In this document: positions 7,406 to 30,226 of the stretch, in pieces
Numbering within the stretch: position 1 is the stretch's first letter
Layout of the letters: each line of letters begins with the position of its first letter
Assembly (NCBI GenBank): GCA_046758505.1
Contig: JBHIAH010000024.1
Coordinates: 1-30,226 of the forward strand
Length of the DNA: 30,226 nucleotides
Reading direction: 5' to 3'
DNA from: Candidatus Methylomirabilales bacterium
GTDB taxonomy: Bacteria > Methylomirabilota > Methylomirabilia > Methylomirabilales > CSP1-5
The notes under the pieces: generated by a model
What the model saw: the letters and a program-made list of their open reading frames with translations, nothing else
Databases searched by the model: none
What the model was told of the DNA's origin: nothing
Program-made: the position numbers and the translations under genes

Positions 7406-7416
7406 AGGGGGGCGCC

Positions 7417-9080: not shown

Positions 9081-9100
9081 AGGAGGGGACAGAATATTCA

Positions 9101-9211
9101 AAGCGCGGAGCGGTCCTCTACCGTCACGTGAAGGACCAGGCGGGCAGGCCGCAGGATCTGGTCATCATGATCAACGATCTGGTGGAGACGCCGGATGTGG
9201 TCGGATTCTGA
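9101..9211 (+). pseudogene. Probable C-terminal remnant of a second GNAT gene
   Basis: Start-less frame KRGAVLYRHVKDQAGRPQDLVIMINDLVETPDVVGF* aligns by eye with the GNAT C-terminus KQVARFDRNIVDRTGEYHDLTVYHLDL. Confidence 0.5.
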
Positions 9212-9332
9212 GGGAGGACCCCTTTCCAGGAAACCAACGGCTCAGGCTGGAACGCACACGACCACAGATTTCCAAATTCGCTGACAGGCCCGCGGTCAGA
9301 TTGCTCACCTGCGCTGAGAGCGGAGGGAGGCG

Positions 9333-10502: not shown

Positions 10503-10529
10503 CCGAGCGTTCGCCGCTTACTGATTGGT

Positions 10530-10550
10530 GTCCAAGGTCCAAGGTCCAAA
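10530..10550. repeat. 7-bp tandem repeat (GTCCAAG x3)
   Basis: GTCCAAG GTCCAAG GTCCAAA, intergenic. Confidence 0.65.
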
Positions 10551-10579
10551 GTCTGGTATTGAGTTTGCGGAGGAGAGTA

Positions 10580-11269: not shown

Positions 11270-11603
11270 AGAGGCGGGCCTTTGTGGCCTTCCCCTGGCG
11301 GCGCCCGCCGAGAACTCCCCCATTGCGGTCCAGGGAGATCAACACCGGACGGATATCGTGGTATACTCCCCCATCGGCTGGAGGCTCGGTTGGTCCACCG
11401 GGGTTGACGGGTGTTTCTCGCCTGTTGACCCCCTTCCAGCTGCTGGTCTTCCAGCGGGGAGCCGCGGCCCGGATTCGGGGTGTATCGTCCACAGGAGGGC
11501 CTCCGCATGGGGTATTTCGATTGTATCATATATAATGAGGATTGATGTGGAGGAGGGGGGCCGACATCCATGAGGACAAAGCGCCGATGAGCGGAGAGCG
11601 ACG

Positions 11604-13913: not shown

Positions 13914-14118
13914 TCCGCGCCGTCGACACTCCGGGCCTCACGATTTCCCCAATCGCAGCCCTGCCCTTCCGGATCCGGCACCGTAGAATGCTCGGTGAGG
14001 CTGCCCTGCCGCAAGACGTTAAGCTCTCCCACGGCACGGACACGATGAGAAAGTTTGGATCCCTGTCCCGGCACTGTTCCGGCCAGCCTTCTGTCGCCGA
14101 CAGCATCCGGGTCCGATT

Positions 14119-15441: not shown

Positions 15442-15921
15442 ATGCGGCGATGGGTCATTGGGATGATATTTGTATTCTTGCTCTTTCTCCCCCAGTCCGG
15501 ACGGGGACAGTCGAAGGGGGCGCGGGTCGGGGCGCGGGTCGTCGGAAACCTCGAGGTCACCCTCTACGTGTGGGGGCCCCAAGACGTGCTTCACCCCCGA
15601 GGAGAAGGCCACCATACGCCGCAGGAGAAAGCGACCCATCACCTGGACGTGCGGGTCTACGATCTGCGGCGGGCGATCTACATTCCGTACCTTACCGTCA
15701 AGGCGACGATTACCGACCGCACCAAGCAGCGGGAGTTTACTGTGGGGTTGAATCCCATGATCGGGGAATGGCTGCACTATGGGGCCAACATCACGCTTCC
15801 CCATCCCGGGACCTATTCGATTCTGGTGGATGTCCAGCCCCCGGATATCGCCCGGTATAAGTACCTGGCGGATGTGTGGAGTAGCCCGGCTGAGGGGCTG
15901 TTCACCTACGAATACCGGTAA
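15442..15921 (+). CDS. Periplasmic P19/FetP/Tp34-like metal (iron) binding protein
   Basis: Signal peptide; HHLDVRV, YIPYLTV, PM...HYGANITLP-PGTY, VQPP, C-terminal FTYEY; GAGGAGG RBS. Confidence 0.75.
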   Translation: MRRWVIGMIFVFLLFLPQSGRGQSKGARVGARVVGNLEVTLYVWGPQDVLHPRGEGHHTPQEKATHHLDVRVYDLRRAIYIPYLTVKATITDRTKQREFTVGLNPMIGEWLHYGANITLPHPGTYSILVDVQPPDIARYKYLADVWSSPAEGLFTYEYR

Positions 15922-16118
15922 GCAGTCGATCGCTGAACATGTCAAGCGCACGGTGGCGCGCCCAGTGCAATCCTTTCTGTTCCCGCCCGGCCACAGACAC
16001 CAACGCTGTTTCCCGGCTGGATCTCGCTTGAGCCCGGTTGTTCGACTCCGGGTTTGTCTTTTGCCACCTCGTCGGACCGAACGGTACGGCCGGCAAGGTG
16101 GGTGATAAGCCTCTTCCC

Positions 16119-16144
16119 TGCGGCACCCCTGCCTCACTGAGGTA
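16119..16144 (+). promoter_or_regulatory. Putative enhancer (UAS), copy 3
   Basis: TGCGGCA-CCCC-TGCCTCA at 16119-16136 and half-site TGAGGTA at 16138; 187 bp upstream of the -24 GG. Confidence 0.6.
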
Positions 16145-16265
16145 ACCCCCCGTCTTTTGCGGCGTTCCCCTTTTGTTTCATTCCAGGACGGCCTGGCCTG
16201 GTGGGACATCCGTGCCTCAATCCGCATGTTCCTCCATTGCTTGGTGAGATGCGATCGTGCCGAGA

Positions 16266-16320
16266 AATCAAAGAGTTACGGCTGGAAGGGGATGGAAATG
16301 CTCGTGGCACCCTCTTTGCA
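16266..16320 (+). promoter_or_regulatory. IHF site plus sigma54 -24/-12 promoter 3
   Basis: AATCAA-AGAG-TTA (exact WATCAANNNNTTR) at 16266-16278; TGGCAC-CCTCT-TTGCA at 16305-16320. Confidence 0.88.
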
Positions 16321-16383
16321 AAATCTAAGGCGGACCCGGGCCCGCAATCTACGATCTCGGAAGGCTCGAGAGGGAGGAGGGGG

Positions 16384-16851
16384 ATGGGTAAGCCTCGAAA
16401 TCGGTCTGCGCGATCGAAACGAGGGGGGTCCCGGCACTGGTCGGTGGCTCTCGTGATCGTGACCGTGGGAGTTGCCGCCGTGGCCGCCTAGCGGGCGGAG
16501 GCTCCACGGCAGGTCGACCCTCGTGGTCCTTCCGTGGCGTCGGCGACGGTCCTCCCCGCGCTGGCGCGGCGGGAGAGCCGTCCGACTCTCGACCCAGCGC
16601 TCTTCGTCGGCAAGGCGGCGCTTGCCCACCAAGTGGCGCGGGAGATCCCCGGGGTGCTCGACCGGCTGTACTGTTACTGCTATTGCGACAAGCATCTCGG
16701 TCACAAAAGCCTCCTCTCCTGTTACACCGACGGCCACGCGGCAACCTGAGACATCTGCATGGATGAGGCGCTGGATGCGTCTCGCATGGCAAAGGCGGGA
16801 TACCAAGTGGCTCAGATCCGCGCCCAGATCAACCGGAAGTACGCCCGCTGA
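16384..16851 (+). CDS. PCYCGC/CYCxC-motif protein, predicted selenoprotein (TGA 16747-16749 = Sec); also interrupted by TAG 16489-16491
   Basis: ATG after GGAGG; N-terminal TM; LYCYCYCDKHLGHKSLLSCYTDGHAAT-U-DICMDEALDA...QIRAQINRKY; UxxC replaces the family CxxC; SECIS-like hairpin. Confidence 0.78.
16756..16791 (+). promoter_or_regulatory. Candidate bacterial SECIS element
   Basis: GAGGCGC-TGGAT-GCGTCTC stem-loop with lower TGCATG/CATGGCA pairing; G-containing loop starts 23 nt after the UGA. Confidence 0.65.
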
Positions 16852-16980
16852 TCGCCCGAATTCTCGAGTTGCTGCTCACGGACCGTATGCTGCCAAAATG
16901 CCGGCATGATGTGGTCGTGATTGGAAGCAGTCGAGACCGTGCGTGAATACTGTGTAAAGGTCACACGGAAACTCAAGGGG

Positions 16981-17718
16981 ATGTTCCACAAAATTCCTGA
17001 GCAAATAAGAAGACTGTCAATCGTCCTTGCCCTGATTATTGGGGGGGCGCTGGTCCTCAGGTATATTATTCTGCCTGCGTCCCTGTTCGGGACACAATTT
17101 CATCGCGCATCGACGATACGGAGGGAGGTTGCGAAACCTGTCAAGTTTGCAGGGACGACCGTGTGCGGTGAATGCCATGACGATAAACTGGCGATCAAGA
17201 GAAAGGGATTCCACAAAGACCTCGGGTGCGAAACGTGTCATGGGCCCGCAGCGCTGCATACGGAGGACCCGTTGACGGTAAAGCCCTTTGCGCCCCGGGA
17301 AAGAAAGTTCTGTCCCCTGTGCCATGCATACGATCCGTCGAGACCAACAGGTTTTCCGCAAATCAATGTGACGCTTCATAATCCCCTCAAGCCGTGCATC
17401 ACCTGTCATAATCCACACGATCCAAAGCCCCCCACAGCTCCGAGTAAGTGTTCTGCCTGTCATGCAGAAATTGCCAGAACCAAGGCGGTTTCACACCATG
17501 CACTCATCAGTTGCACGACATGTCACAGGGCGCCGAGGCGACATCGACTGAGCCCGCGCCGTGTGAAACCAACCAAGCCGGCAACGCGGGAATTCTGCGG
17601 GAAGTGCCATCGGGAAGGATCCAAGAGAAAGGACGCGCCAAAGATCGACCTGGCTACGCACGAGCCGAGACATCTGTGTTGGGAGTGTCATTATCCGCAT
17701 ATGCCGGGGGGGGCGTGA
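16981..17718 (+). CDS. Membrane-anchored octaheme cytochrome c
   Basis: N-terminal TM; 8 CxxCH (CGECH, CETCH, CPLCH, CITCH, CSACH, CTTCH, CGKCH, CWECH). Confidence 0.92.
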   Translation: MFHKIPEQIRRLSIVLALIIGGALVLRYIILPASLFGTQFHRASTIRREVAKPVKFAGTTVCGECHDDKLAIKRKGFHKDLGCETCHGPAALHTEDPLTVKPFAPRERKFCPLCHAYDPSRPTGFPQINVTLHNPLKPCITCHNPHDPKPPTAPSKCSACHAEIARTKAVSHHALISCTTCHRAPRRHRLSPRRVKPTKPATREFCGKCHREGSKRKDAPKIDLATHEPRHLCWECHYPHMPGGA

Positions 17719-18506
17719 TGGGCCGAAGGCGTTTTCTCCAGGGCCTGGTGTGGTTTATTTCCGTCTGCCTGTTTTCCAGGAATCCTCTCAAGGAGGTCGT
17801 TGCCAGTACGAGTGCAGAGCCAGGCGCAGGTCTGAACGGAGATGCAAAATTCCCGGTCGAAGGGTACGATCCCGCGAAACACTATTATGCAATGGGGATC
17901 GATATCGATAAATGTATCGGCTGTAACAGGTGCGTTGAAGCCTGCACGATTGAAAACAACGTCCCCCCAGAGCCGTTCTTTACGCGCACGTGGGTCGAGC
18001 GATACGTGATAAAGAATGACAAGACCGTCGCGGTACAGAACATCTCTGAGGGGAGAGATAGAGCCGAGGGACCCATAGAGGAGCGTGATATCCTGAGGAG
18101 CTTCTTTGTTCCCAAACTGTGCAATCAATGTGACAATCCTCCATGTGTGCAGGTCTGTCCTGTGGGAGCTACCTGGTCAACACAGGACGGAGTTATTGTT
18201 GTCGACAGTGAGCGCTGTATTGGATGCAGATACTGCATCCAGGCGTGCCCGTACGGCGCGCGATACCTTCATCCGAAAACCAAAACGGCCGATAAATGCA
18301 CGTTTTGTTATCATCGAATCGTCAAGGGGATGCTCCCGGCCTGCGTGGAGGTCTGTCCGACCGAAGCAAGAATTTTTGGAGACTTGAAGAGCAAAGCAAG
18401 CCGCCTGGTCCGATTCGAACGGATGAACAAGATCCACGTGCTCAAACCGCATCTCAACACCGAGCCGAAAGTCTATTACTCCGGTCTTGATGGAGAAGTG
18501 CGATGA
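17718..18506 (+). CDS. NrfC/PsrB-like four-cluster 4Fe-4S protein with Tat-like signal
   Basis: MGRRRFL; CIGCNRCVEAC, CNQCDNPPCVQVCP, CIGCRYCIQACP, CTFC...PACVEVCP. Confidence 0.93.
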   Translation: MGRRRFLQGLVWFISVCLFSRNPLKEVVASTSAEPGAGLNGDAKFPVEGYDPAKHYYAMGIDIDKCIGCNRCVEACTIENNVPPEPFFTRTWVERYVIKNDKTVAVQNISEGRDRAEGPIEERDILRSFFVPKLCNQCDNPPCVQVCPVGATWSTQDGVIVVDSERCIGCRYCIQACPYGARYLHPKTKTADKCTFCYHRIVKGMLPACVEVCPTEARIFGDLKSKASRLVRFERMNKIHVLKPHLNTEPKVYYSGLDGEVR

Positions 18507-19714
18507 ATCCTGCATCCTACACCGGCTTATACGATCTGCTCCAGCGGGTCACCGGCTTCATTTATCCCAATGAGCTGGAGATCCACTGGTCAATCCTCAT
18601 TGTCGTGTATCCGTACATTACCGGACTGGTCGCGGGGGCGTTTATCCTTGCATCGTTAGTCAAGGTCTTCAACGTCAAGGAAGTGCAGCCGACGTATCGG
18701 CTTTCCCTCTTGACGGCTCTGGCATTCCTCCTCGTTGCGCCGTTGCCGCTGCAATTACACCTTGGCCACCCCGAACGGGCTTTTGAGATTTTCCTGACGC
18801 CAAACCTGAGTTCGGCGATGGCCATGTTCGGGTTCGTGTATGCCTGGTATTTGATGGGTGTGCTTCTGCTCGAAATATGGTTTGAATACAGACGGGATCT
18901 TGTCGTGTGGTCCAATCAAGAAACGTTCCCAATGAAATGGATCCACAAGATTCTTTCCCTGTTTTCGACAGATATCAGCCAAAGGGCAATTGAATTTGAC
19001 CGAAAGGCCGTGAAGACAATCACGATTATCGGCATCCCGTCCGCCTTTCTCCTCCACGGCTATGTCGGATTTATCTTCGGATCGGTAAAGGCGAATCCGT
19101 GGTGGAGTAGTGTGCTGATGCCGATCGTGTTCCTCATGTCTGCGATTGTCTCGGGCATTGCCCTCGTCATCGTATTATACATGTTTCTCGTCTCGCTGAA
19201 GGGTGAAGGAATAAATATGAAGTGTCTTGACACCCTTGCTTCCTATCTCTTTTATGCGGTGATTGTTGATTTCTCTCTTGAGGCCTTGGATTTTGTCCAT
19301 CGCCTGTACGAAAGTGAGGAGTCGATCCAGATACTGGCAACATTGATCGCGGATAAGTTATTGATAAGCCTGGTCGTCATTCAAGTTCTCCTCGGGATGC
19401 TCATCCCGGTGGGAATTCTGGTTGTGGTCAAATTGCTAAAGTTTGACGAGGAGCTGAGAAAGCTCCTCTATTTCACCTCGGCGATCTTAATTCAACTCGG
19501 GATCTTCAGCACGAGATGGAACGTGGTCATTGGAGGCCAGTTGTTTTCAAAAAGTTTCCGGGGGCTGACGACCTACAAGATGGAGGTGATGGGAGTTGAA
19601 GGCTTGCTTGTCGCGATTGGCCTCCTGATTCTCCCATTCATTGTTCTGGCTATTCTCATGAGAATTCTCCCTCCGTGGAAAGCGGTTGGGGCGGGAGAGG
19701 TGCAGCACTCATGA
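18503..19714 (+). CDS. nrfD: NrfD/PsrC family membrane quinol-interacting subunit
   Basis: WSILIVVYPYITGLVAGAF, HLGHPER, LHGYVGFIF, RWNVVIGGQ; ~10 TM; follows the NrfC-like gene. Symbol denotes the family, not nitrite-reductase function. Confidence 0.9.
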   Translation: MNPASYTGLYDLLQRVTGFIYPNELEIHWSILIVVYPYITGLVAGAFILASLVKVFNVKEVQPTYRLSLLTALAFLLVAPLPLQLHLGHPERAFEIFLTPNLSSAMAMFGFVYAWYLMGVLLLEIWFEYRRDLVVWSNQETFPMKWIHKILSLFSTDISQRAIEFDRKAVKTITIIGIPSAFLLHGYVGFIFGSVKANPWWSSVLMPIVFLMSAIVSGIALVIVLYMFLVSLKGEGINMKCLDTLASYLFYAVIVDFSLEALDFVHRLYESEESIQILATLIADKLLISLVVIQVLLGMLIPVGILVVVKLLKFDEELRKLLYFTSAILIQLGIFSTRWNVVIGGQLFSKSFRGLTTYKMEVMGVEGLLVAIGLLILPFIVLAILMRILPPWKAVGAGEVQHS

Positions 19715-19841
19715 AGGGGGCGAGATCTGGACAGGGATAATCATGGGCCTGGGCCCGCTCTTGCCGTCCAATGTGTCAGCGGACCGGGGGCGGCGTGGCA
19801 GAGGGAGGGTGCCGGTGGACTCTGGCCCGAGCCTGGATTCA

Positions 19842-20075
19842 ATGGAGAGGCGCAAGGTGATTCCTCATATGCTTGCGGTCGCGATGACGCTGTTGGTCCC
19901 TGTCGTGGCGGCGGCCTGGTCGCTCGTGGCTGGGCACCGGCTCTCGCTCCGAGCGTATCCTGACCCTCGGACGGCGAGCCGGGCGCTGATGCCGATGGCG
20001 GCTCTGGCATTTGTCTTGACCGTGGCGGGCATCATGTTATTGAATCAGCCGATGGCGATGCGTCACGGAATGTAA
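19842..20075 (+). pseudogene. Short hydrophobic ORF, possibly the C-terminal remnant of a membrane polyferredoxin
   Basis: Two TM segments ending ...RALMPMAALAFVLTVAGIMLLNQPMAMRHGM; no clear start; family assignment from memory only. Confidence 0.4.
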
Positions 20076-20162
20076 GTTCTTCAGGGGTGGCTCTGGAGCG
20101 TGGCGATAACTCTTGAATGGTCTCATGTCCACCGATCTGGAAGAGATGAGAGGGGCAGGTTG

Positions 20163-21380
20163 ATGAATCCGTTTTCGGGAAGCGTACGGAGAAGTCGGGC
20201 CGCTGGGTGGGTCACCGCCCTCGTCGTGCTTCTCCTGTGGCCCGTGGCGTTCCCGGCGGCGCAAGAGCTCTTCACCCCTACCCAGAACCCGGTTGTCGGC
20301 TCACGGGTCTTCAGGGTCAAGGGATGCAGCCGGTGTCATGCGGTGAATGGCGTCGGGGGCCAGGTCGGACCTGACCTCGCCCGGATCCCGCGCCCCCGCT
20401 CGTTCTACGACCTTGCTGCGGCCATGTGGAATCACTTTCCCCGCATGGCGGCGCGGATGCGCGAGCTCAAGATTTCCCGGCCGCACCTCTATCCGCGGGA
20501 GACCGGCGACCTGATCGCGTTTCTGTACACCGTGGACTATTTCGATCCTCCGGGCAACCTCGAGGCGGGACAGCGGCTTTTTACGCAGAAAAAGTGTGTC
20601 ATCTGTCACCAGGTGGGCGGTAGGGGAGGAGTCGTGGGGCCCAACCTGGACTTCCTGAAGCAGTACGGTTCGCCGATCTTTATCGCGACGGCGATGTGGA
20701 ACCACGGCCCCGCCATGGCCGAGGCCATGCGGGCCCGGGGGATCACGCGCCCCTCCTTCAAGGGCACGGAGCTCATCGACCTGATCGCCTACCTCAAGTC
20801 CGCCTCGCCGGAACCGGTGGGGGAACCGCTGGTCGTCCTACCCGGTCGTGCCGAGGTAGGGCGCAAGCTCTTCGCCGAGAAGCGCTGCGTCACCTGCCAC
20901 AGTGCCGGGGGGAAGGGGGGTCGGGTGGGGCCGGATCTCGCCGAGCGAGGGCTACATCGGAGCCTGACCCAGTTTGCGGCGGCGATGTGGAACAAGTCCC
21001 CAGCGATGGTCAAGGCCATGCGCGCCCGGAAGATCTTGCTTCCAGAGCTCAAGCCTCAAGAGATGGCGGACATTGTGGCCTACCTCTACTCGGTGCGATA
21101 CTTCGCCGAGGGGGGAAATCCCCGCAACGGGCAAGCCTTGGTGGCCGGGAAAGGGTGTCTCCGGTGCCACTCCGTCCGTGGCGAGGGTGGAAAGTCCGCA
21201 GGGGATCTCGCCCAGGCCAGGCGCCTTCCCTCGCCTGCCGCGGTCGTCTCCATGCTGTGGAACCACGCCCTGGTCATGGAGGAGCAGGCCGAAATCCGGA
21301 AGCATACCTGGCCCGAGTTCCGCGCCCAAGAGATGGCCGACCTCGTCGCGTATCTCCAGGTGCTCAGGCGCAGCCGATGA
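20163..21380 (+). CDS. Tetraheme cytochrome c made of four class I-like repeats
   Basis: Signal peptide; CSRCH, CVICH, CVTCH, CLRCH, each followed by G(P)DL-like and WN(H/K)..M motifs. Confidence 0.9.
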   Translation: MNPFSGSVRRSRAAGWVTALVVLLLWPVAFPAAQELFTPTQNPVVGSRVFRVKGCSRCHAVNGVGGQVGPDLARIPRPRSFYDLAAAMWNHFPRMAARMRELKISRPHLYPRETGDLIAFLYTVDYFDPPGNLEAGQRLFTQKKCVICHQVGGRGGVVGPNLDFLKQYGSPIFIATAMWNHGPAMAEAMRARGITRPSFKGTELIDLIAYLKSASPEPVGEPLVVLPGRAEVGRKLFAEKRCVTCHSAGGKGGRVGPDLAERGLHRSLTQFAAAMWNKSPAMVKAMRARKILLPELKPQEMADIVAYLYSVRYFAEGGNPRNGQALVAGKGCLRCHSVRGEGGKSAGDLAQARRLPSPAAVVSMLWNHALVMEEQAEIRKHTWPEFRAQEMADLVAYLQVLRRSR

Positions 21381-22633
21381 TGAGGCGGATCGGACTACTT
21401 GGCTCGTTCGCACTGTTGGCATCCCTTGCGTGGCCGTGGCCTGTCGCCGCCAAGCCGCCGGCGGAGAGCTGCGTCGCCTGTCACCTCGAGATCGGCGACG
21501 ATCGCCTCGCCGCGCCCGCGCGGGAGTTCGGCACCAGCGTCCACGCAGCCAAGGGCTTCGGGTGCGTGTCATGCCACGGGGGCGACCCGAAGGAGGCGGG
21601 GATGGAGGCGATGGATCCGGCCAAGGGATACATCGGCAAGCCCAAGCACCGGCAGATTCCGCAGGTCTGCGGCCGGTGCCATTCCGATGCCCGATTCATG
21701 AAACGATACAACCCGGCGCTGCGCGTGGATCAGGTCGCCGAGTACAGGACGTCAGTGCACGGCCAGCGTCTCAGCCAGCTTGCGGATCCCAAGGTGGCGA
21801 CCTGCGTGAGCTGCCATACGGCCCATTCAATCAGGCCGCCTTCGGATCCTCGATCAACCGTCCACCCGCTCAAGGTGGCGGACACCTGCGGGGCGTGTCA
21901 CGGCGACGCGGAGTACATGAGGGCTTACGGTATTCCGACCGATCAGCTCACCAAGTACAAGGCGAGCATCCATTGGAAGACAATGTTGCTCAAGGGCGAC
22001 CTCTCCGCCCCCACGTGTAACGATTGCCACGGGAACCACGGCGCGACGCCTCCGGGAATTTCATGGGTCGGGAATGTCTGCGGGCAGTGCCACGTCGTAC
22101 AGGCGGAGCTATTTGCCAAGAGCGTCCACGCCGGGGTCTTCGCCCAGATGGGGACACCTGGCTGCGCGACGTGTCACGAAAACCACGAAATCAGGCCGGC
22201 GAGGGACGAAATGCTGGGGCTCGGGGACCAGGCCGTATGCGCAGCCTGCCACGCCCAGGACGATACGGGCGGGAAGACCGCCGTGGCGCTGCGGGAGAAC
22301 ATTGATTCCCTCCGCGGTACGTATGAAAAGGCGCACGCGATCCTGCTCCAGGCCGAGCACGCCGGGATGGAAGTCAGCCGCGCCCAGTTCGAGTTGAAGG
22401 ATGCCAAGGACGCTTTGGTAAAGGCCCGTGCGGCCATCCATGCCTTCGCCGTCGAGCCGGTGGAGAAGGAGGTCAAGACGGGCCTCGGCATCAGTCAGAA
22501 GGCGTACGCCCGCGGGGTGCAGGCACTTGAGGACTTGCAGTTTCGCCGCAAGGGACTGGTGGTGTCGGTCGTGATCATTCTGGCCCTCATCGCGGGACTC
22601 GTGATCAAGATCCGTCAGGTCGAAAGACGATAA
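21377..22633 (+). CDS. Nonaheme cytochrome c with C-terminal membrane anchor
   Basis: Signal peptide from ATG 21377; 9 CxxCH; helical C-terminal region and TM GLVVSVVIILALIAGLVI. Confidence 0.92.
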   Translation: MMRRIGLLGSFALLASLAWPWPVAAKPPAESCVACHLEIGDDRLAAPAREFGTSVHAAKGFGCVSCHGGDPKEAGMEAMDPAKGYIGKPKHRQIPQVCGRCHSDARFMKRYNPALRVDQVAEYRTSVHGQRLSQLADPKVATCVSCHTAHSIRPPSDPRSTVHPLKVADTCGACHGDAEYMRAYGIPTDQLTKYKASIHWKTMLLKGDLSAPTCNDCHGNHGATPPGISWVGNVCGQCHVVQAELFAKSVHAGVFAQMGTPGCATCHENHEIRPARDEMLGLGDQAVCAACHAQDDTGGKTAVALRENIDSLRGTYEKAHAILLQAEHAGMEVSRAQFELKDAKDALVKARAAIHAFAVEPVEKEVKTGLGISQKAYARGVQALEDLQFRRKGLVVSVVIILALIAGLVIKIRQVERR

Positions 22634-22830
22634 CCGATCACCGTAAACCGATGACCGTTCTACGTTGATTGGTTATCTTTTGCCGATCGTCGGGTCATCG
22701 GTCATCGAATCGTGAACCATGAACTCTGAACCCTGATGTGGGGCATTGGGGGTTGGGTGCTGGGGAAGGGTTTAAAAGCATCCTAGCATCCCAGCATTCT
22801 AGCCACCGAGCACCAATCACCAACCACCGG
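22633..22830. repeat. Mosaic of degenerate 7/8-bp tandem repeats
   Basis: ACCGATC/ACCGATG, GGTCATC, GTGAACC-ATGAACT-CTGAACC, AGCATCCY octamers, CACCAAT/CACCAAC runs. Confidence 0.65.
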
Positions 22831-22839
22831 GGGCAAGCA

Positions 22840-23295
22840 ATGGCTGAAGAGACACTGGGTCGAGACCGGACGCGCAGGAGCTTCATCAACTGGTTCCTTG
22901 CCACGAGTACGGGGGCCTTCCTGCTCGCAGTGCTCTACCCGGTGACCCGGTACCTGATTCCCCCGCCGATCGGGGAGTCCACGGCCGCAACCGTGACGCT
23001 CCCGATCAAACCGGCGGATGTGAAGCCGAATTCGGGGCAGATCTTCAAGTTTGGCAGCCGCCCGGGGATTCTGATCCGGACGCCGGCCGGCGAACTCCGG
23101 GCTTTCTCTGCTGTCTGCACCCACCTGCACTGCACGGTGCAGTACCGATCCGACCTCAGTCAGATCTGGTGCGCCTGCCACAACGGGCACTTCGACCTCA
23201 ACGGAAACAACGTCGCCGGTCCGCCCCCCCGGCCGCTGGATAAGTACGTAGTCAAGGTCCGGGGAGACCAGATCGTGGTGAGCAAGAGCGCATGA
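22840..23295 (+). CDS. Rieske 2Fe-2S subunit of a Rieske/cytochrome b complex
   Basis: Tat-like TRRSF plus TM; CTHLHC and CACHNG boxes; GPPPRPL. Confidence 0.95.
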
Positions 23296-24395
23296 ACACG
23301 GGAGCGCGCGACAAGCAGCACGGCAGGCTCTGGGAGTGGTTCGACGAGCGCATCGGCCTCGCCGAGCTGCAGAAGCTCGCCAAGAAGAAGGAGGTTCCGG
23401 TTCACCGGCATACGATCTGGTACTACCTGGGCGGGATGACCCTCTTTCTCTTTCTGATCCAGGTGAGCACCGGCATTCTCCTCCTCCTCTACTACCGGCC
23501 CAGTGCCGAGGAGGCGTATGAGTCTATCCAATTCCTGATGGCCGAGGTACAGTTCGGCTGGCTGATCCGCTCGATTCACGCCTGGGCGGCGAACCTGATG
23601 ATTTTTACCCTGTTCGTTCACCTCTTCAGCGTGTGGCTCCTCAAGGCGTACCGCCCACCCCGGGAGGTCACCTGGCTCTCGGGGATGGGCCTCCTGGGCC
23701 TCGCGCTGGGCTTCGGGTTTACCGGCTATTTGCTGCCGTGGAACGAGCTGGCCTACTTTGCCACCAAGGTGGGGACCGAGATCACGGGGGCTGTTCCCGT
23801 GATCGGCTCGTTTCTCGGCCGGCTGCTTCGCGGTGGCGAGCAGGTCACCGGGGCGACGCTCACACGCTTTTACGGAATCCACGTCGCAATCCTTCCGCTC
23901 CTCGCCACGCTCCTGCTGGGCCTGCACCTCTTTCTGGTCCAGAAGCATGGCATGAGCGTCCCCCCTGGCGTCGAGCGACAAGGGAGCGCAAAGCGCGTCA
24001 TGCCCTTCGTGCCGAATTTCCTCCTGCGCGACGTGGTAGGGTGGCTCTCGGCGCTGGCGATCCTGGCTGCGCTGGCGGCCTACTTCCCGGCGGAGCTTGG
24101 GGTAAAGGCGGACCCGTTCGCGCCCGCACCGATCGGCATCAAGCCCGAGTGGTACTTCATGTTCATGTTCAAGACGCTCAAGTACCTGCCGGCTCACATT
24201 CTTGGCGTCGAGGGGGAAGTCGTCGGCATCGTTGGCTTCGGCGTGGGCGGCCTGTTCCTGGTGCTCGTGCCCTTCCTGGATCGGTGGACGGCCCGGGGAG
24301 AGCGGAGCCGCCTGTTTACCTGGATCGGGGTTGTGATCATCGTGTATATGATCGTGTTGACATACCTTGGTTACACGGAGGTCGCAACGCAATGA
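23292..24395 (+). CDS. Cytochrome b of a Rieske/cytb complex (unsplit)
   Basis: [43 protein letters not shown] Qo motif. Confidence 0.95.
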
Positions 24396-25015
24396 AACCG
24401 ATTCGCCTGCTTACGGCAGTCCTACTCGGCGGGAGCCTGTTGGCCGCGCCTATGCGGGCCGCTGCCGAAACACCGGGAGATGCTGTGCGCGGTCGCACGG
24501 TGTTTACGAGCAAGCAGTGCGCGCGGTGCCATAAGCCTCGCGGCCAGCAGGCGCTCGGTCCACCACTGGAGGAACTCCGAAAGCGTCAGGGGGTGCTCGA
24601 GCTGGCAGGGCGGCTCTGGAATCACGCCCCGGCGATGTTCGAAGTCCTTGAATGGGAGGGCCTCGAATGGCCCCGAATTAGTGCAACGGAGATGCGCGAT
24701 CTCTTGGCATACCTTCGCGCGAAAACTCTCTGGGACCCTATCCCCAATACCTCTGCGGGGTACGTTACTTTGGTCCGGAAGGGGTGTCTCAAGTGCCACC
24801 GGTTGCGGGGTGAGGGGGGCTCGGCAGGGATCGAGCTGATGAAGTATCATGGAGGTTACGTATCTCCCCTTGTGTGGGCAACGACGATATGGAATCATTC
24901 CCCCCAGATGGCTGAACATGCCAGGCGAATGAGCCTGCTGTACCCGCGCTTCACCGGGGAGGAGATGGTCAACCTGTTTGGGTTCTTGAAGCACGCCGCC
25001 GCGTCATCCCAGTGA
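24392..25015 (+). CDS. Diheme cytochrome c (two WNH-type repeats, paralogous to 20163-21380)
   Basis: ATG 24392, signal peptide, CARCH...[13 protein letters not shown]...IWNHSPQM. Confidence 0.9.
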
Positions 25016-25031
25016 TCGAAAGGAGGAGAGT

Positions 25032-25382
25032 ATGCGACTCGGACGATTGATGATTGGCTTCGCACTTGTGCTCGGGTTCACGATCGTGATGGCGGCCTTC
25101 GTCCCGGAGGCTGCCGCCCTCAAGGTCCCGCCGGACTTCAGCTTTGCGCAGGGCAAGGGGAGTCCCGGGCCGGTGACCTTCAGCCATGCCTTTCACAAGG
25201 AAAAGCTTGGCAAGTGCTCGGCGTGTCACACCAAGGTGTTCAAGATGAAGCGGGGAAAGTCCGGGACGCCGACGATGGCTGCGATGAAGGAGGGGAAGTT
25301 CTGTGGAGCCTGTCACAACGGGAAGGTGGCTTTCAGCGTGAAAGAGTTTAAAAATTGCAAGAGGTGCCATAAGAAGAAATGA
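25032..25382 (+). CDS. Triheme c7-type periplasmic cytochrome
   Basis: Signal peptide, VTFSHAFH, CSACH, MAAMKEGKFCGACHNGKVAF, CKRCH; AGGAGG RBS. Confidence 0.92.
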   Translation: MRLGRLMIGFALVLGFTIVMAAFVPEAAALKVPPDFSFAQGKGSPGPVTFSHAFHKEKLGKCSACHTKVFKMKRGKSGTPTMAAMKEGKFCGACHNGKVAFSVKEFKNCKRCHKKK

Positions 25383-25681
25383 GGCCTGACCCTTCGGCGC
25401 AAGGATGCTTATGACCTGTGAGGCCTGCCTGGCTTGCCATGCCGGGACAGGGTCTGCGGGAGCCTCATCTCCTTCTGCGGGAGTCTGCTCTCGCTTCAGG
25501 CGTGCGTGCGTCAGTTCGTGGGGTGCGTAAAGGGTTAATCTCGGTGCGATGACAACCCTCCGGGCACCTTCAAAGGCAGGTGCACCCTCCCTCGGGTAGT
25601 TGGGTCCAGCTCGCTGAAAATCGGGAGTTCCTCGAGCGGACTCAAGGTCGCGACCGTCTTGAGGCGAAGGGAAAGAGCCAC

Positions 25682-26608
25682 ATGGACGAGCAGCCTACTG
25701 CCCGGCGCGGGCGCTGGCGGATTCTCCTGATCGGTCTGGCCACCTCCCTGGTCGTTGGCTTTGCATTGTTGGCCGGGCTCTGGGAAGTCAGCTCGAGCCC
25801 GTCATTCTGCAACTCCTGCCATATCATGGAACCCTACTACGAGGCCTGGAAGAAGTCCCCGCACAACACCGTGGCCTGCGTCAAGTGTCACTATCCTCCG
25901 GGCTTCCGCGACACGCTCTGGGTCAAGTATCAAGCGATCAGTCAGGTTGCTAAGTGGGCGACGGGGACATATAGCTCAAAACCTTTCGCCGAGGTTGAGG
26001 ACGCGAGCTGCCTTCGGTCGGGTTGCCACTCTCGACGTCTGCTCGAAGGCAAGGTCGTCTTCAGACGGGACATTCTCTTTGACCATCGCCCGCACCTCGC
26101 CGAGGTCCATGGAGGCCCACGGCTCCGTTGCACGAGCTGCCACTCGCAGATCGTTGTGGGGACCCACATCCAGGTCATCGAGACCACCTGCTTTCTCTGC
26201 CACTTCAAAGGGAAGAAAGTGGGGCGAGAGCTTGCCCCCATTGCTGGCTGCACCGGCTGCCACCAACCGCCGAAGGGTGATATTCTAGTGGGCTCGATCC
26301 GGTTCAACCACCAGGAGGTGGTGCGCCGCGGTGTCGCCTGCCAAAAATGCCACCTGAATGTTATCGAAGGTGATGGCGAGGCTCCACGCACGCGCTGTGT
26401 CACCTGCCACAACGAGCCGGAAAAACTCGAGGGCTACGCGGACACCATGATGATCCACAACGTCCATGTCTCTGGGCACAACATCGAATGCGCGCGCTGC
26501 CATAACGAGATCAAGCACAAGTTGCCACCTCCCATCGGAATGCCGGCCGCACAACCCCAGGCAGGCTCCCCCCCACGAATCGTGCGTGCCGCGGAGGGCA
26601 TTCGATGA
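25682..26608 (+). CDS. NapC/NirT-type membrane-anchored multiheme cytochrome c
   Basis: TM then SSPSFCNSCHIMEPYYEAWKKSPH-VACVKCH; 8 CxxCH plus CLRSGCH (CX4CH). Confidence 0.9.
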   Translation: MDEQPTARRGRWRILLIGLATSLVVGFALLAGLWEVSSSPSFCNSCHIMEPYYEAWKKSPHNTVACVKCHYPPGFRDTLWVKYQAISQVAKWATGTYSSKPFAEVEDASCLRSGCHSRRLLEGKVVFRRDILFDHRPHLAEVHGGPRLRCTSCHSQIVVGTHIQVIETTCFLCHFKGKKVGRELAPIAGCTGCHQPPKGDILVGSIRFNHQEVVRRGVACQKCHLNVIEGDGEAPRTRCVTCHNEPEKLEGYADTMMIHNVHVSGHNIECARCHNEIKHKLPPPIGMPAAQPQAGSPPRIVRAAEGIR

Positions 26609-28158
26609 CCCTGTGGAGCCGCATTGCCGCTTTGGGCCTGGTGTTGGGCGTTGCTGTTCCAGCCGTCTCCGCCCAGGAGCCGGGCCCCGACTCGACAGTG
26701 ACTGCTGTATCCCTCAGCGTTCGCATTTCACGGTTCACCGCAGGGAAAAATTCGAAATCCGAAATTGGAAATTCGAAATTGATCTTCGTCGGTCGTCGGA
26801 CTTCGGCGAGGAGTTCGGCTGAGGCTCACTCGAAGCCCTCAGTCGAGCCGTCAGCGGTCGTCGACCGTCAACCCGTGACGGTCGCGAGCCAGCATCCTGG
26901 TTCACCGCCCCTCGCACCGGCGGACCACGAAGAGGGCAAACCGCCGGCGAAGGCGCACCGCACTGGCGAGCTCGAATGCCAGAACTGTCACCTCGGCAAA
27001 CACCAGGGGATACTGCGGATGTATCTCGGTATGGGCGGGCGCGGGACGCCAATGATTCCGAGTCATATGTTTCAGGTCCGCGTGCAGTGCGTGGCCTGCC
27101 ACATCGTGCCCAAGGAAAAAAAGCGGGTCGCCGGCATTGTGGGGCAGACGTTCAGGCCGAGCGAGCAGGCATGCTTGGGTTGCCACGGCGAGAAGTACCG
27201 TGGGATGTTGAAGCGGTGGTCGGACACGCTCCGGAAGATGCAGGAGGCCGTGGCCCCGAAGCTCGCGGCTATGGACAAAGCGCTGGCCAGCGCCAACCCC
27301 AAAAATCCCAAGCATGCGAAGGCGAGGAAACTGGTGGACGACGCCGCATTCAATACTCACTTCGTTGCGCTCGCCAAAGGCGTCCACAACGTCTTTTACG
27401 CGGCCGACCTGCTCAAGCTCGCGAACGGCTGGCTCGACGAAGCGTTTACACTCCTTGGGCAGGCACCGGTCGAAACCGATGACGTCCTCGTCCGCGGTAG
27501 ATACTGCCGCGAGCTGTGTCACCAGCAGGCAGGGGTTCCCCTGCCCGTGACGGTCACATTCAAGGGGCAGGAGGTGCCGCACGGCCGGCACATTACCGAG
27601 TTCGGCGCCGTGTGTACGGACTGTCACTCGGCCGAGGTGCACAAGGCGGTCACTGCGACCCCTGCGACGTGCGTATCGTGTCATCATAGCCCGGAGAACG
27701 AACGGTGCACGTCGTGTCACCGCACGCAGGCTGCCTTCTACCGCGGGGAGATAAAGACGGACCTGGCCAAGATCGAGCCGAACGTCATGGCCGCCGCGGT
27801 GGATTGCACCGGGTGCCACGATTGGAACAAGAAGCACTCGCGCAAGGCGGTCGGCCAGCAGTGTCTCGCATGCCACGACGAGGCGTACGTCGCGTTCCTG
27901 GATGAGTGGACGACCGGGCTCGACGAGCAAATGGCGAAAGCGACCAAAGACCTCAAGCGTGCGGAGGTCGCACTCAAGAAGGCGCGCCGCGCCAAGCGTA
28001 AGATCAGCGCGGCGGAGAGCTTGGTGGAGGACGCGCACAGAGCACTGGCCGTGGTCAAAGGGGGGCGGGGCGTTCACAATCCCGCTGCCGCGGATGCACT
28101 CCTGGAAGTTGTCCGTCAAAAGGCAAAACAGGCGCTTGCCCAAATCGGGCGGCGGTGA
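26605..28158 (+). CDS. Periplasmic multiheme cytochrome c with repeat-derived N-terminal insert
   Basis: Signal peptide; 8 CxxCH plus CRELCH (CX3CH); two helical segments each ending GVHN. Confidence 0.9.
   Translation: MTLWSRIAALGLVLGVAVPAVSAQEPGPDSTVTAVSLSVRISRFTAGKNSKSEIGNSKLIFVGRRTSARSSAEAHSKPSVEPSAVVDRQPVTVASQHPGSPPLAPADHEEGKPPAKAHRTGELECQNCHLGKHQGILRMYLGMGGRGTPMIPSHMFQVRVQCVACHIVPKEKKRVAGIVGQTFRPSEQACLGCHGEKYRGMLKRWSDTLRKMQEAVAPKLAAMDKALASANPKNPKHAKARKLVDDAAFNTHFVALAKGVHNVFYAADLLKLANGWLDEAFTLLGQAPVETDDVLVRGRYCRELCHQQAGVPLPVTVTFKGQEVPHGRHITEFGAVCTDCHSAEVHKAVTATPATCVSCHHSPENERCTSCHRTQAAFYRGEIKTDLAKIEPNVMAAAVDCTGCHDWNKKHSRKAVGQQCLACHDEAYVAFLDEWTTGLDEQMAKATKDLKRAEVALKKARRAKRKISAAESLVEDAHRALAVVKGGRGVHNPAAADALLEVVRQKAKQALAQIGRR
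26717..26850 (+). repeat. In-frame composite repeat: heptamer arrays plus repeat element copy 2
   Basis: AAATTCG-like x5 (26748-26782), then CGGACTTCGGCGAGGAGTTCGGCTGAGGCTCACTCGAAGCCCTCAGTCGAGCCG (26797-26850). Confidence 0.8.
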
Positions 28159-28172
28159 TAAAGGATTAAAGC

Positions 28173-29003
28173 ATGGGACGATCCTCTCGACAGAAGCTGC
28201 CCGAGACCCCGCGCCGCAACTGGCCGGTGGCCGGACTCGCGGCCGCAGGTCTTATCGTGGCGGGCTACCTCGCATTGACCAAACTCGGGGGTGAGAGTCC
28301 CCTGTTCTGCACCGCGGGTAGCGGCTGCGATATCGTCCAGGCAAGCCGGTATGCGGTCTTTTTCGGCCTGCCCACGGCGCTGTGGGGGACTGGCCTCTAC
28401 GCGGCCATCGGCGCTCTTGCACTCATGGGGCTGGACGCGCGGCGATGGCTCGCCGCCTTCTTGCTGGCCGTTGTCGGCGTGTCCTTTTTTGCGTATCTCA
28501 CCTATCTCGAGTTGTTTGAGATCGGCGCGGTCTGTTCATACTGTGTCCTCTCGTCGCTGATCATGGTGGCCCTCTTCGGCCTTTTACTCGCTGGCCGGTC
28601 GTCGGTCGTCGGTCGTCGGTCCGCGGTGCGCCCGGGCCGGATCGCCACCCTCGGCACCATCACGGCTGTGGTTACCATCCTCGTCGGCGCCGGTTACTTC
28701 GCGGGGGATTCCTCGCACGCCGCTGGCTATCAGGAAGCACTTGCCCGTCACCTGAGCGACAGCGGCGCCATCATGTACGGCGCCTACTGGTGACCCGCCT
28801 GCGGCGAGCAAAAGGCCCGGTTCGGGCCTGCGGCGAAACTGCTCCCGTACGTCGAGTGCGATCCGAAGATGCCGGGGTCGGATCCGGCGCTCTGCCGCCG
28901 CCTCGCGATCCGGGTCTATCCCACCTGGTTCATCAGGGGCGTGCGTCACGAGGGGGTCCTCACGCTTGACCGGCTGGCCACACTCTCGGACTTCCGGCAG
29001 TAG
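28173..29003 (+). CDS. VKOR-thioredoxin-like fusion, predicted selenoprotein (TGA 28791-28793 = Sec)
   Basis: VKOR: C-TAGSG-CDIVQASRYA, CSYC; readthrough gives MYGAYW-U-PACGEQKARFG...LPYVECDP...LC...IRVYPTWFIRG...GVLTLDRLATLSDF to TAG 29001-29003. Confidence 0.88.
28596..28616 (+). repeat. In-frame heptamer repeat (CGGTCGT x3)
   Basis: Three exact units = 21 nt, encoding RSSVVGR between VKOR TM helices. Confidence 0.75.
28808..28831 (+). promoter_or_regulatory. Candidate bacterial SECIS element
   Basis: Perfect stem AGGCCCG-GTT-CGGGCCT (28813-28829); loop starts with G, 27 nt after the UGA. Confidence 0.65.
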
Positions 29004-29374: not shown

Positions 29375-29431
29375 AATAAATAAGTTAGTTGAAGGTGAGT
29401 GAATTACCACACCCGTGGCACCCTGCTTGCT
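29375..29431 (+). promoter_or_regulatory. IHF-like site plus sigma54 -24/-12 promoter 4
   Basis: AATAAA-TAAG-TTA at 29375-29387; TGGCAC-CCTGC-TTGCT at 29416-29431. Confidence 0.82.
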
Positions 29432-29511
29432 CTGCAACCGCGGGGATCCCGTGTGACGCGTCCATTAGCCCCCCTTACCTTGGTTGAAGACGAGTAGATA
29501 TCGAGGGGATC

Positions 29512-30226
29512 GTGGGGTTGTTCACGAGCCTGAAGGCAAAGTTCATCACCGCGACGATTCTAATCCTCGTTGCCGCGATCGGGGTCTCGTCGTGGCGGAC
29601 CCTGAAGATGCAGCGGGACCAGCTCATTGCGGCCACCGAGGAGAAGGTGACTATGCTCACGGACACGATCGAAAGGAGCATAGCGACCGCCATGGTGGAG
29701 GGGCGCAGCGAGGATGTGCAGGCCATCGTCCAGAAGCTGGGGGATCATGGAGATATACAGCGGATACGAATCTTCGACGACGAGGGGACGATACGGATAT
29801 CCTCTGACCTGAAAGAACGAGGAAGGAAAGTATCCCGCCCCGGCCCTCCGCAATACAAAGGCCATATCGAGACAAACGTCCCCTTTATCTTCAAAGAGCA
29901 CGCAAGCGGACACGCAATCCATTCCCTCGTCAAGCCGATCCTGAATCGTCCGGAGTGTTACCGGTGTCACGATCCCCGTCACCGGGTAAACGGCATCCTC
30001 CAGATCGACTTTTCGCTGGCCAAGGCCAGGGCCCAGATTGCGTCCATCCACTCCTTCGTCCTTTTTTCTGCGATTGCGACCATCGCGTCCCTGTCCCTTG
30101 CCCTTTGGATCCTCCTCTCCCGGTTGGTGAGCCGCCCGGTCTCTGCCCTTATCCGTACGATGGGCGAGGCGGAGGGGGGGGATTTGGACGCTCGGGCACG
30201 TGTCGGGTCCAAGGATGAGCTGGGGC
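29512..30226 (+). CDS. Partial signal-transduction protein: TM, periplasmic heme-c sensor, TM, HAMP (runs off the window)
   Basis: Open frame from GTG 29512 (absent from the ORF track): SLKAKFI-TM...AMVEG...KPILNRPECYRCH...GILQIDF-TM-RPVSALIRTMGEAEGGDLDARARVGSKDELG. Confidence 0.88.
   Translation, partial: MGLFTSLKAKFITATILILVAAIGVSSWRTLKMQRDQLIAATEEKVTMLTDTIERSIATAMVEGRSEDVQAIVQKLGDHGDIQRIRIFDDEGTIRISSDLKERGRKVSRPGPPQYKGHIETNVPFIFKEHASGHAIHSLVKPILNRPECYRCHDPRHRVNGILQIDFSLAKARAQIASIHSFVLFSAIATIASLSLALWILLSRLVSRPVSALIRTMGEAEGGDLDARARVGSKDELG

Follow-up and report, generated by a model that had tools for sequence, protein, structure and literature searches.

Zixibacteria RBG-1 carries a cluster of MtrA-MtrB, a Rieske/cytochrome b pair and monohaem and multihaem cytochromes, for which no extracellular MtrC is reported and no direction of electron flow is settled (PMC3903129, Castelle et al. 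2013; statements on papers cited here by accession refer to the portions of their text that were available). In Geobacter sulfurreducens, the conserved extHIJKLMNOPQS cluster unites a selenoprotein, a Rieske protein, cytochrome b, multihaem cytochromes and a porin (PMC5877670). In the VKOR-thioredoxin (VKOR-Trx) fusions of cyanobacteria and plants, the VKOR domain acts as DsbB and the Trx domain as DsbA (PMC3842002). Here we describe an operon-like gene run at positions 16384–29003 of a 30,226-nucleotide (nt) stretch of Candidatus Methylomirabilales bacterium (the window, which is a whole contig of a 2.99 Mb genome that is 96.8% complete in 149 contigs). The run begins with a gene of the CYCXC selenoprotein family, ends with a VKOR-Trx selenoprotein gene and contains seven c-type cytochrome genes between them. 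We propose that it probably encodes a menaquinone-to-periplasm electron hub of the Mtr/PetAB kind, in which selenoproteins serve as accessory thiol-redox factors. The metagenome runs that contain this DNA are hydrothermal vent samples, and the named database records among homologues of its cytochrome L at 70–76% identity belong to NC10/Methylomirabilales and Rokubacteria.

Architecture of the operon

Every gene from 16384 to 29003 lies on the + strand, and the run reads CYCXC (A), an octahaem cytochrome (B), a 4Fe-4S protein (C), an NrfD protein (D), a 51-codon remnant, F, G, a Rieske protein (H), cytochrome b (I), J, K, L, M and VKOR-Trx (N). A perfect sigma-54 (-24/-12) site, TGGCAC-N5-TTGC, stands in front of it at 16305–16319 (+), as an earlier reading made from the letters alone (the sequence-only reading) had stated. 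With up to one mismatch, such a site precedes CYCXC in 17 of 30 loci, namely 17 of the 19 cluster-type loci and none of the other 11, against a genome background of 0.028 per 650 nt. Transcription probably starts from this site; scans for sigma-70 promoters and terminators gave chance-level matches only. Several gene junctions overlap by 1–4 nt, VKOR-Trx follows M after 14 nt, and one transcript for the whole run is plausible.

The seven cytochrome open reading frames (ORFs) contain 42 CxxCH motifs (B 8, F 4, G 9, J 2, K 3, L 8 and M 8) together with two atypical haem motifs, Cx4CH in L and Cx3CH in M, which reproduces the count of the sequence-only reading exactly. No CxxCK occurs in the ORFs of the run, no CxxCH occurs on the minus strand, and neither a catalytic subunit nor a porin was found among the ORFs scanned with Pfam and NCBIfam-type profiles, in agreement with what had been noted for the window. 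The NrfD, cytochrome b and NapC/NirT-type proteins that had been named as quinone-interfacing modules all exceed their Pfam cut-offs, as does the VKOR domain listed as a fourth; VKOR binds quinone but is not the same kind of respiratory module. The previous inventory also passed over the Rieske gene (22840–23295) and the 4Fe-4S gene (17718–18506), and its cytochrome b belongs to a Rieske/cytochrome b complex.

This complex is the first of three modules that face the quinone pool by sequence. H (22840–23295, +) is a Rieske 2Fe-2S protein (PF00355) whose best Protein Data Bank (PDB) match is the b6f Rieske protein, and I (23292–24395, +) is an unsplit cytochrome b of 367 amino acids (aa) with four haem His and PEWY (Pfam and motif check). 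The assignment is based on the Rieske boxes, the adjacent cytochrome b with its haem ligands and PEWY, and the c-type partner G. Cytochrome b is not of the b6f type, being unsplit and reading YYLGG where b6f has YCLGG, with Tyr at the position of the haem-ci Cys. Box 2 of H reads CACHNGHFD and lacks both Ser and Tyr; a Rieske box 2 of this kind has a low potential that suits menaquinol. G (21377–22633, +; motif count), a nonahaem cytochrome with a C-terminal membrane anchor, adjoins Rieske/cytochrome b in distant phyla too and is likely the cytochrome c1 substitute of the complex. A second Rieske gene, 82% identical to H, is located elsewhere in this genome (G000:C10:12950-13381) near CcmG-like genes, with no cytochrome b found beside it.

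The second module consists of L and its predicted partner M. L (25682–26608, +; PF03264) is an NrfH/NapC-like membrane-anchored cytochrome with eight CxxCH and Cx4CH, the first haem motif being CxxCHxM. Its N-terminal 80 residues match NrfH (2j7a, E 2e-9), and the alignment ends at residue 76, short of Asp89, which we take to be the acidic residue of the NrfH quinol site. M (26605–28158, +; motif count) is an exported cytochrome with eight CxxCH, Cx3CH and two helical bundles in a low-confidence model. L and M are fused into one protein of 732 aa with 16 CxxCH in genome G036. A role of M as a nitrite reductase of the NrfA or octahaem type was rejected, as it has no CxxCK and the matches to NrfA-family bundles are weak (E at least 0.17) and come from a model with a predicted local distance difference test (pLDDT) score of 47. 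M has no PDB sequence match and no Foldseek match at E 0.001, and Atlas gives only unnamed cytochrome clusters. A single TGA lies within the L match at G110:C170:277-1176 and at G100:C5:13393-14289, marking either a gene end or a further recoding site.

The third module is formed by B (16981–17718, +), a membrane-anchored octahaem cytochrome with eight CxxCH (GC content at third codon positions, GC3, 0.58), C (17718–18506, +), an NrfC/TtrB-like 4Fe-4S protein (Fer4_11) with a twin-arginine-like N-terminus that falls below the cut-offs of the TtrB, DsrO and NrfC models, and D (18503–19714, +), an NrfD/PsrC quinone-binding membrane protein (PF03916, E 5e-39; GC 0.50). The GC content of the three genes is 0.50–0.55 and their GC3 0.58–0.64, compared with 0.63 and about 0.8 for the neighbours, and B-C-D reads by its composition as a low-GC insert. 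The same low-GC module is present in G006; in G110 the module has the composition of its host.

The remaining cytochromes are carriers by sequence. F (20163–21380, +; motif count and Pfam) is exported and has four class-I monohaem domains, J (24392–25015, +; motif count and Pfam) is an exported dihaem paralogue of F, and K (25032–25382, +) is a trihaem c7-type (PpcA-like) periplasmic shuttle (TIGR04257, 76.7 bits, cut-off 40). F, J and K are predicted to be soluble, and with M they complete the list of periplasmic carriers.

Conservation in Methylomirabilota and association with MtrAB

The phylum sample comprised 111 genomes, 82 of them outside the host's order; a separate sample of loci partly overlaps with it. 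The gene order recurs in both orders of Methylomirabilota. In full, it reads CYCXC (U form), polyferredoxin, EB_dh, F, G, Rieske, cytochrome b, J, K, a 13-haem cytochrome with a cytochrome b, L, M, B-C-D, VKOR-Trx (U form) and MtrA-MtrB, of which the 13-haem/cytochrome b pair, B-C-D and MtrA-MtrB are optional. L was detected in 32 of the 111 genomes, MtrB in 37, CYCXC in 33 and the selenocysteine (Sec) form of VKOR-Trx in 27. MtrB accompanies L in 25 of 32 genomes, compared with 12 of the 79 that have no L; in 13 genomes the two share a contig, at a distance of no more than about 16 kb. L, CYCXC and Sec-VKOR-Trx occur together in 12 of 111 genomes, and CYCXC is found 7–11 kb upstream of L on the same contig in 10. 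Among the 82 genomes outside the host's order, 13 of 17 with L contain CYCXC and 13 of 16 with CYCXC contain L.

L-anchored loci were compared with flanks of at most 10 kb, many of them incomplete. VKOR-Trx is present in 13 of the 40 closest loci (with TGA in all 13) and MtrB in 10, whereas VKOR-Trx is present in none of 40 more distant loci. MtrA and MtrB of locus L033 exceed the TIGR03508 and TIGR03509 cut-offs. The complete bracket with both Sec genes on one stretch is seen here, in G005 and in L127. Genome G003 keeps the promoter and the cytochromes, behind its own ccm genes; CYCXC was not found there. The synteny of both Sec genes with the cytochromes, which had been suggested as a check, is thus present in relatives. 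In the complete genome G036, of the same order, locus L281 (3818-15205) reads MtrA-MtrB-Rieske-cytochrome b-G-K-13-haem-like-cytochrome b followed by the L-M fusion; it has neither Sec gene, and the CYCXC gene of G036 lies elsewhere beside a P-type ATPase gene.

The VKOR-thioredoxin selenoprotein

N (28173–29003, +; Pfam VKOR) encodes a VKOR-Trx fusion with a loop Cys pair, a CxxC and the Trx motif W-U-P-A-C. It matches Synechococcus VKOR-Trx (PDB 3KP9) over its full length (residues 19–273, E 6e-40). The TGA codon at 28791–28793 aligns to the first, attacking Cys of the Synechococcus Trx motif and is followed by a hairpin resembling a selenocysteine insertion sequence (SECIS) at 28813–28829 (+; folding). 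The genome has selA, selB and selD over cut-off as well as tRNA-Sec, as the sequence-only reading required. VKOR-Trx matches were obtained in 44 of 111 genomes, 27 of which have TGA at this site. The best 120 database homologues include 55 that stop at the Trp preceding the UGA and 51 that read WCPxC. The mean hairpin energy 3´ of the UGA is -13.9 kcal/mol for 30 Sec sequences versus -6.9 kcal/mol at the site in 10 Cys sequences, and a tree of 53 VKOR-Trx sequences contains at least four Sec/Cys switches. Taken as a whole, Sec is almost certainly inserted at this UGA.

DsbB was found in none of five genomes. The N-type protein is the sole VKOR in all four relatives and one of two in this genome. 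Its domains correspond to those of SynDsbAB. Rieske proteins carry a disulfide, and the CxxCH of apocytochromes undergoes oxidation before it is reduced again (PMC3842002). From its sequence and by analogy, the best reading of N is therefore a general oxidative-folding enzyme placed by a heavy client load.

The genomic distribution of Sec-VKOR-Trx bears on how closely it is tied to the cytochromes. In 11 of 27 genomes no more than about 6 kb separates it from L, and none of six Cys-form loci stands beside cluster genes. On the other side, 10 of the 27 genomes have no L match, and among 12 Sec loci chosen as not being beside L, nine have no cluster gene within about 6 kb and three adjoin Rieske/cytochrome b or MtrAB genes. 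The proposal of a single, dedicated selenium arm loses force because Sec-VKOR-Trx is usually the sole VKOR in cells without DsbB and is often located away from the cluster. Of the two roles that the sequence-only reading had offered for such an arm, maturation fits best, and electron entry or exit is better explained by the MtrAB conduit of the relatives.

The CYCXC gene and the decayed front module

A (16384–16851, +) belongs to the CYCXC/PCYCGC (OS_HP4) selenoprotein family and encodes an N-terminal membrane anchor and a UxxC motif. It scores 130.8 bits on NF041379 (cut-off 90); the family is also covered by PF13798. The Sec codon TGA is at 16747–16749 and a SECIS-like hairpin at 16765–16783 (+; folding), whose stem is retained with changed pairs across relatives. 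TGA occupies the CYCXC UxxC in 32 of 33 genomes over the NF041379 cut-off. The sequence-only reading had two UxxC selenoprotein genes bracket the run; UGA codons with a hairpin do stand at both ends (16747 and 28791), but the CYCXC frame is broken by an in-frame TAG at 16489–16491 (+), just after the membrane anchor. The position is Trp in the four closest relatives, and the open frame here is the shortest among the 33 genomes. Contigs from four of four runs cover the site with no alternative letter; the four are contigs of one study, three of them flagged as a possible source. An assembly error is unlikely, given the same letters in the contigs of all four runs, and pyrrolysine read-through was rejected, as PylS is below cut-off and a CUA anticodon occurs in none of the 39 tRNAs of an incomplete tRNA set. 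The TAG in four of four runs and the sub-threshold PylS indicate that CYCXC here is probably a recent pseudogene.

The genes that follow CYCXC in relatives are affected as well. An intact 646-aa Fer4_5 polyferredoxin comes after CYCXC in most relatives and directly so in 14 of 30 loci. In this genome the sole polyferredoxin match is a remnant at 19920–20075 (+; Fer4_5), comprising the final 51 codons (the last helix) of this NapH/CcoG/FtrD-like membrane protein, which is 78–86% identical in aa and 82% in nt to the intact genes of loci L033 and L037. The EB_dh haem-b gene, which comes after the polyferredoxin gene in relatives, is gone from the locus, and B-C-D occupies the place of the two lost genes. 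The CYCXC TAG, the polyferredoxin remnant and the loss of EB_dh together indicate that the front module is decaying in this lineage. It is likely that only one of the two selenoproteins is made in this genome. Among loci L013-L023, of genus g8 and others, the CYCXC proteins of genus g8 begin with a twin-arginine-like signal instead of a plain anchor, which would suggest cytoplasmic loading of a cofactor; these loci also include divergent PCYCGC paralogues that have UxxC.

The CYCXC protein resembles the periplasmic domain of CcmH in part. Its AlphaFold model (pLDDT 77.5) has a designed protein as the top structural match (VIA, Z 6.7), and the CcmH domain ranks second (Z 5.0, root-mean-square deviation 3.4, 67 residues aligned). 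With a profile of 161 CYCXC sequences, HHalign aligns the UxxC and the C-terminal hairpin to CcmH at 84% probability and a score of 32.7, whereas 30 column shuffles score no higher than 15.8 and the reversed profile scores 9.9. Among nine longer CYCXC homologues, seven have a CcmG/TlpA-like redoxin as fusion partner (about three independent arrangements), and 27 long representatives include two with a CcmH-like domain (one over cut-off) and one with a TPR domain. In G003, ccmF-G-H genes immediately precede the cluster. A relation to CcmH is opposed by several observations. The Z-score of 5.0 falls inside the noise range for helical bundles; the likeness spans 34 columns only, and its probability drops to 12% when the alignment is shallow and to 28% when it is global; HMMER comparisons of CYCXC and CcmH are non-significant either way; and a canonical CcmH is encoded elsewhere in this genome. 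The CcmH motif LRCxxC is absent from CYCXC, which has A-T-U-x-x-C there, Pfam CcmH does not match its own domain, the fold has no Foldseek match at E 0.001, and the profile has no match in the PDB. The near-invariant six Cys/Sec and two His of CYCXC suit a metal site, and the neighbours of CYCXC genes include P19, FeoB, P-type ATPase and MerR genes.

These last observations lead to a reading for CYCXC that we regard as tenable, if somewhat short of an even chance: an exported Cu/Fe-binding selenoprotein that, with the polyferredoxin as a CcoG/FtrD-like metal reductase and P19-type proteins, supplies metal to the respiratory chain and has no part in haem attachment. It concerns CYCXC alone and is compatible with the hub. 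The eight near-invariant Cys/His speak for it, as do the gene neighbours of CYCXC. In 14 of 30 loci the polyferredoxin gene comes directly after it; P19 lies upstream both here and in G005, and further neighbours are FeoA/FeoB in G023, a P-type ATPase in G036, MerR in G022 and an Fe3+-binding protein in Parageobacillus (PMC13068155). The metal reading fits less well with the fusions to CcmG-, CcmH- and TPR-like domains, with the alignment of UxxC to the CcmH CxxC, and with CYCXC being the gene that opens the cytochrome operon after its conserved sigma-54 site. The narrower proposal that CYCXC is tied only to an upstream metal-uptake block was dropped, given its co-occurrence and promoter links with the cytochrome operon. 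Haem-maturation thiol chemistry and metal delivery are about equally probable functions of CYCXC.

Proposed electron flow and alternative explanations

In the model that we favour, the three modules, Rieske/cytochrome b with G, L with M, and B-C-D, would oxidise menaquinol in parallel and load a shared periplasmic haem pool. Two genes of the futalosine pathway were detected in five of five genomes. In most relatives the pool would discharge through MtrAB; in this genome the outlet would have to be reductases, oxidases or monohaem porins whose genes lie elsewhere. Sec-VKOR-Trx would stand in for DsbA and DsbB in the cell: its selenolate, at position one of the Trx UxxC, would take electrons from periplasmic dithiols, for example those of the Rieske disulfide or of apocytochrome CxxCH, and pass them via the VKOR cysteines to menaquinone. 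CYCXC, the polyferredoxin and the haem-b partners would form a periplasmic reductant- or metal-delivery module with a CcmH-like UxxC, which appears dispensable and is decaying in this genome.

Several points weigh against the hub. MtrAB was not found in this genome by Pfam or tblastn at its 96.8% completeness and 149 contigs, nor in G006; the run contains intergenic gaps of 205, about 206 and 299 nt; and the compared genomes are kin and not independent, which makes the counts tallies rather than tests.

Several genes elsewhere in the genome are candidate clients of the hub. These are NarG/NxrA-like, NapA-like and TtrA-like molybdoenzymes (all below their family cut-offs), alternative complex III (ACIII) next to the gene of a haem-copper oxidase, and an HAO-like octahaem protein (G000:C66:10725, C17:28724, C53:10151, C17:8071-15118 and C53:1793). 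Two AioA-like molybdoenzymes over the TIGR02693 cut-off (G000:C17:35060-37732 and C45:13600-16272) each lie near two dihaem cytochromes, a layout that we take to recall the iodate reductase idrABP1P2. Four proteins of 384–445 aa (G000:C17:19650, C17:25314, C66:6556 and C141:740) have an N-terminal A-x-P-x-F-A-R...CxxCH and are, by this motif, presumably Cyc2-like; they have no Pfam or NCBIfam match, and Atlas places one near porin-like clusters. It is possible that these four monohaem, porin-like proteins provide the outer-membrane outlet instead of MtrAB.

The same anatomy could also run in reverse. Electrons would then enter from Fe(II), minerals or humics via an MtrAB of the MtoAB/PioAB kind and flow downhill to oxidases or nitrate reductase and uphill to menaquinone via L, the NrfD module and a reversed Rieske/cytochrome b complex. 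An N-terminal CxxC of MtrB is linked to iron reducers, and it is absent in all six MtrB proteins examined, which favours uptake. The MtrAB genes of G017 have a monohaem cytochrome gene and ACIII behind them, and their contig also carries the gene of a haem-copper oxidase. A similar cluster was read as more probably serving Fe(II) oxidation by Castelle et al. (PMC3903129), and PioAB homologues of Rokubacteria have been proposed as iron oxidation candidates (PMC10654088). RuBisCO, in contrast, is present in only one of five genomes, which favours outward respiration, and these protein families run both ways (PMC6295460). The low-potential Rieske protein and the parallel quinone modules would presumably fit Geobacter-type reducers equally. 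Electron uptake as an account of the operon is on balance unlikely, although not strongly so; as to the main direction, quinol oxidation has slightly the better of an even chance and uptake distinctly less.

A bolder version of the accessory role of the selenoproteins is that the operon carries a selenium-based assembly kit for extracellular electron transfer, in which an oxidising Sec-VKOR-Trx at its end and a reducing, CcmH-related Sec-CYCXC at its start work together and the latter is fed across the membrane by the polyferredoxin in place of DsbD/CcdA. We consider this speculative and rather unlikely. If true, a first function would be known for the CYCXC/PCYCGC family, and the construction of a multihaem conduit would depend on selenium.

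It is improbable that the run is a loose island of independent cassettes with the selenoprotein genes at its ends as bystanders, without a functional tie. The location of B-C-D varies, the 13-haem/cytochrome b pair and MtrAB are optional, and CYCXC was not found in G003 and is broken here, all of which speaks for such an island; however, the promoter and the first-gene position of CYCXC are conserved across two orders, L is found in 13 of 16 CYCXC genomes outside the host's order, and only 14 nt separate M from VKOR-Trx. Least probable, and in our view hardly to be expected, is that the selenoproteins are catalytic entry or exit points, with Sec-VKOR-Trx oxidising extracellular thiols or polysulfides to feed menaquinone like ExtKL/MccSep in sulfur respiration: precedents exist (PMC5877670, PMC13510729), TGA is found in 13 of 13 VKOR-Trx genes of the 40 closest cluster loci while Cys-form genes are absent from cluster surroundings (0 of 6), and VKOR-Trx stays beside MtrAB or Rieske/cytochrome b in rearranged clusters (L183, L190 and L192), but it is the sole VKOR in most genomes with DsbB not found in five, its architecture is identical to that of a known disulfide-forming enzyme, it is often unlinked to the cluster, and neither Sec protein has haem or resembles ExtKL.

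Flanking genes and regulation

The hub operon is flanked by genes for regulation and metal transport. The intergenic DNA upstream of the sigma-54 site (16055–16336, in part) is 72% identical to that of G006 and partly retained in G003 and G005; this stretch likely contains activator-binding sites. At 15442–15921, just upstream of the promoter, is the gene of a P19/Tpd-type Fe2+ transport protein (PF10634), which is found beside CYCXC in G005 too and has a 75% identical paralogue at G000:C53:13751 in the same genome. The block at 1490–15153 encodes a PAS kinase, an NtrC-like sigma-54 activator and, after a perfect sigma-54 site at 5233, GNAT, two Usp, CBS, NAPRTase and CBS-BON proteins, a heavy-metal P-type ATPase and a Na/Ca exchanger; much of it is also present upstream of the cluster in G005 and G006. 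Downstream, another perfect sigma-54 site, the third in the window (29416–30226 region), precedes a sensor kinase gene that starts at 29512 and is cut by the contig end. The periplasmic sensor domain of this kinase contains CxxCH. G006 has a related kinase and a sigma-54 activator after VKOR-Trx, and G003 has a CxxCH kinase within the cluster. Haem-based redox control of the operon is possible.

Significance and comparison with known systems

Soils, aquifers and sediments commonly harbour Methylomirabilota (NC10 and Rokubacteria), most of which are uncultured. A conserved quinone-to-MtrAB operon in about a quarter of the sampled genomes points to metal or humic redox cycling and supplies marker genes. 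Databases cut Sec-VKOR-Trx proteins at the UGA, as happened to 55 of the best 120 homologues. With the CcmH-like lead, the function of CYCXC becomes testable, in a family with more than 1,000 representatives at E 1e-10. This genome is a natural partial knock-out, with CYCXC broken, the polyferredoxin deleted and MtrAB not found, and shows which parts the core can spare.

No description of this operon or of a Sec VKOR was found in the literature accessible outside subscription papers and bioRxiv supplements. VKOR was not found in the 119-family selenoprotein table of PMC13188914, and 'VKOR' and 'vitamin K' are absent from the main texts of PMC13188914, PMC13326102 (BSepDB) and PMC12013277 (deep-Sep) and from one supplement of PMC13326102, a scope to which the BSepDB database itself and the deep-Sep supplements do not belong. 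Term look-ups in the available text of PMC6094997, PMC7005843 and PMC11264602 gave nothing on the cluster. The available literature on the CYCXC family leaves its function unassigned and mentions neither a CcmH likeness nor the operon position. New here are the conserved start of the operon with its sigma-54 site and CYCXC, the link to Sec-VKOR-Trx, the CcmH-like lead and the partial decay of this copy.

Compared with Zixibacteria RBG-1, the core of the operon would work like the Mtr/PetAB cluster, a likeness by cluster description and not by gene-by-gene homology. The operon here differs in its sigma-54 start and in including CYCXC, polyferredoxin and VKOR-Trx genes; no MtrAB was found in this genome, and selenoproteins are unmentioned in the available account of RBG-1. 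The Geobacter ext cluster is a precedent for selenoproteins within a Rieske/cytochrome b multihaem cluster. The Geobacter selenoprotein is, however, a catalytic pentahaem enzyme (MccSep, PMC13510729), whereas the Sec proteins here are haem-free thiol proteins. The locus lies outside the ext family, as cytochrome b scores 214 bits on ExtP (cut-off 290), F scores 62 on ExtS (cut-off 100) and no ExtKL match was obtained.

The individual modules have their own counterparts. L begins like NrfH of NrfHA, and M has no CxxCK and hence is no NrfA. The 13-haem cytochrome and cytochrome b pair of relatives resembles a split CbcL/MtoC in the CbcL/MtrH/MtoC group. B-C-D has a cytochrome c/NrfC/NrfD build that we take to be of the Geobacter Cbc4 (CbcSTU) type, in build only. 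CYCXC here is a member of the family catalogued as OS_HP4, a predicted UxxC selenoprotein, but is interrupted by TAG. Like the CcmH/NrfF/Ccl2 periplasmic domain (PDB 2HL7 and 2KW0), it is a small bundle of helices in which a G-x-x-x-x-x-I helix hairpin comes after the CxxC; in contrast to CcmH, it has six more conserved Cys/His and no LRCxxC. N shares its two-domain build, loop Cys pair, CxxC and Trx motif with Synechococcus VKOR-Trx (PDB 3KP9 and 4NV2; SynDsbAB, plant LTO1), from which it differs by Sec at the first Trx position, a conserved SECIS and the link to a respiratory operon.

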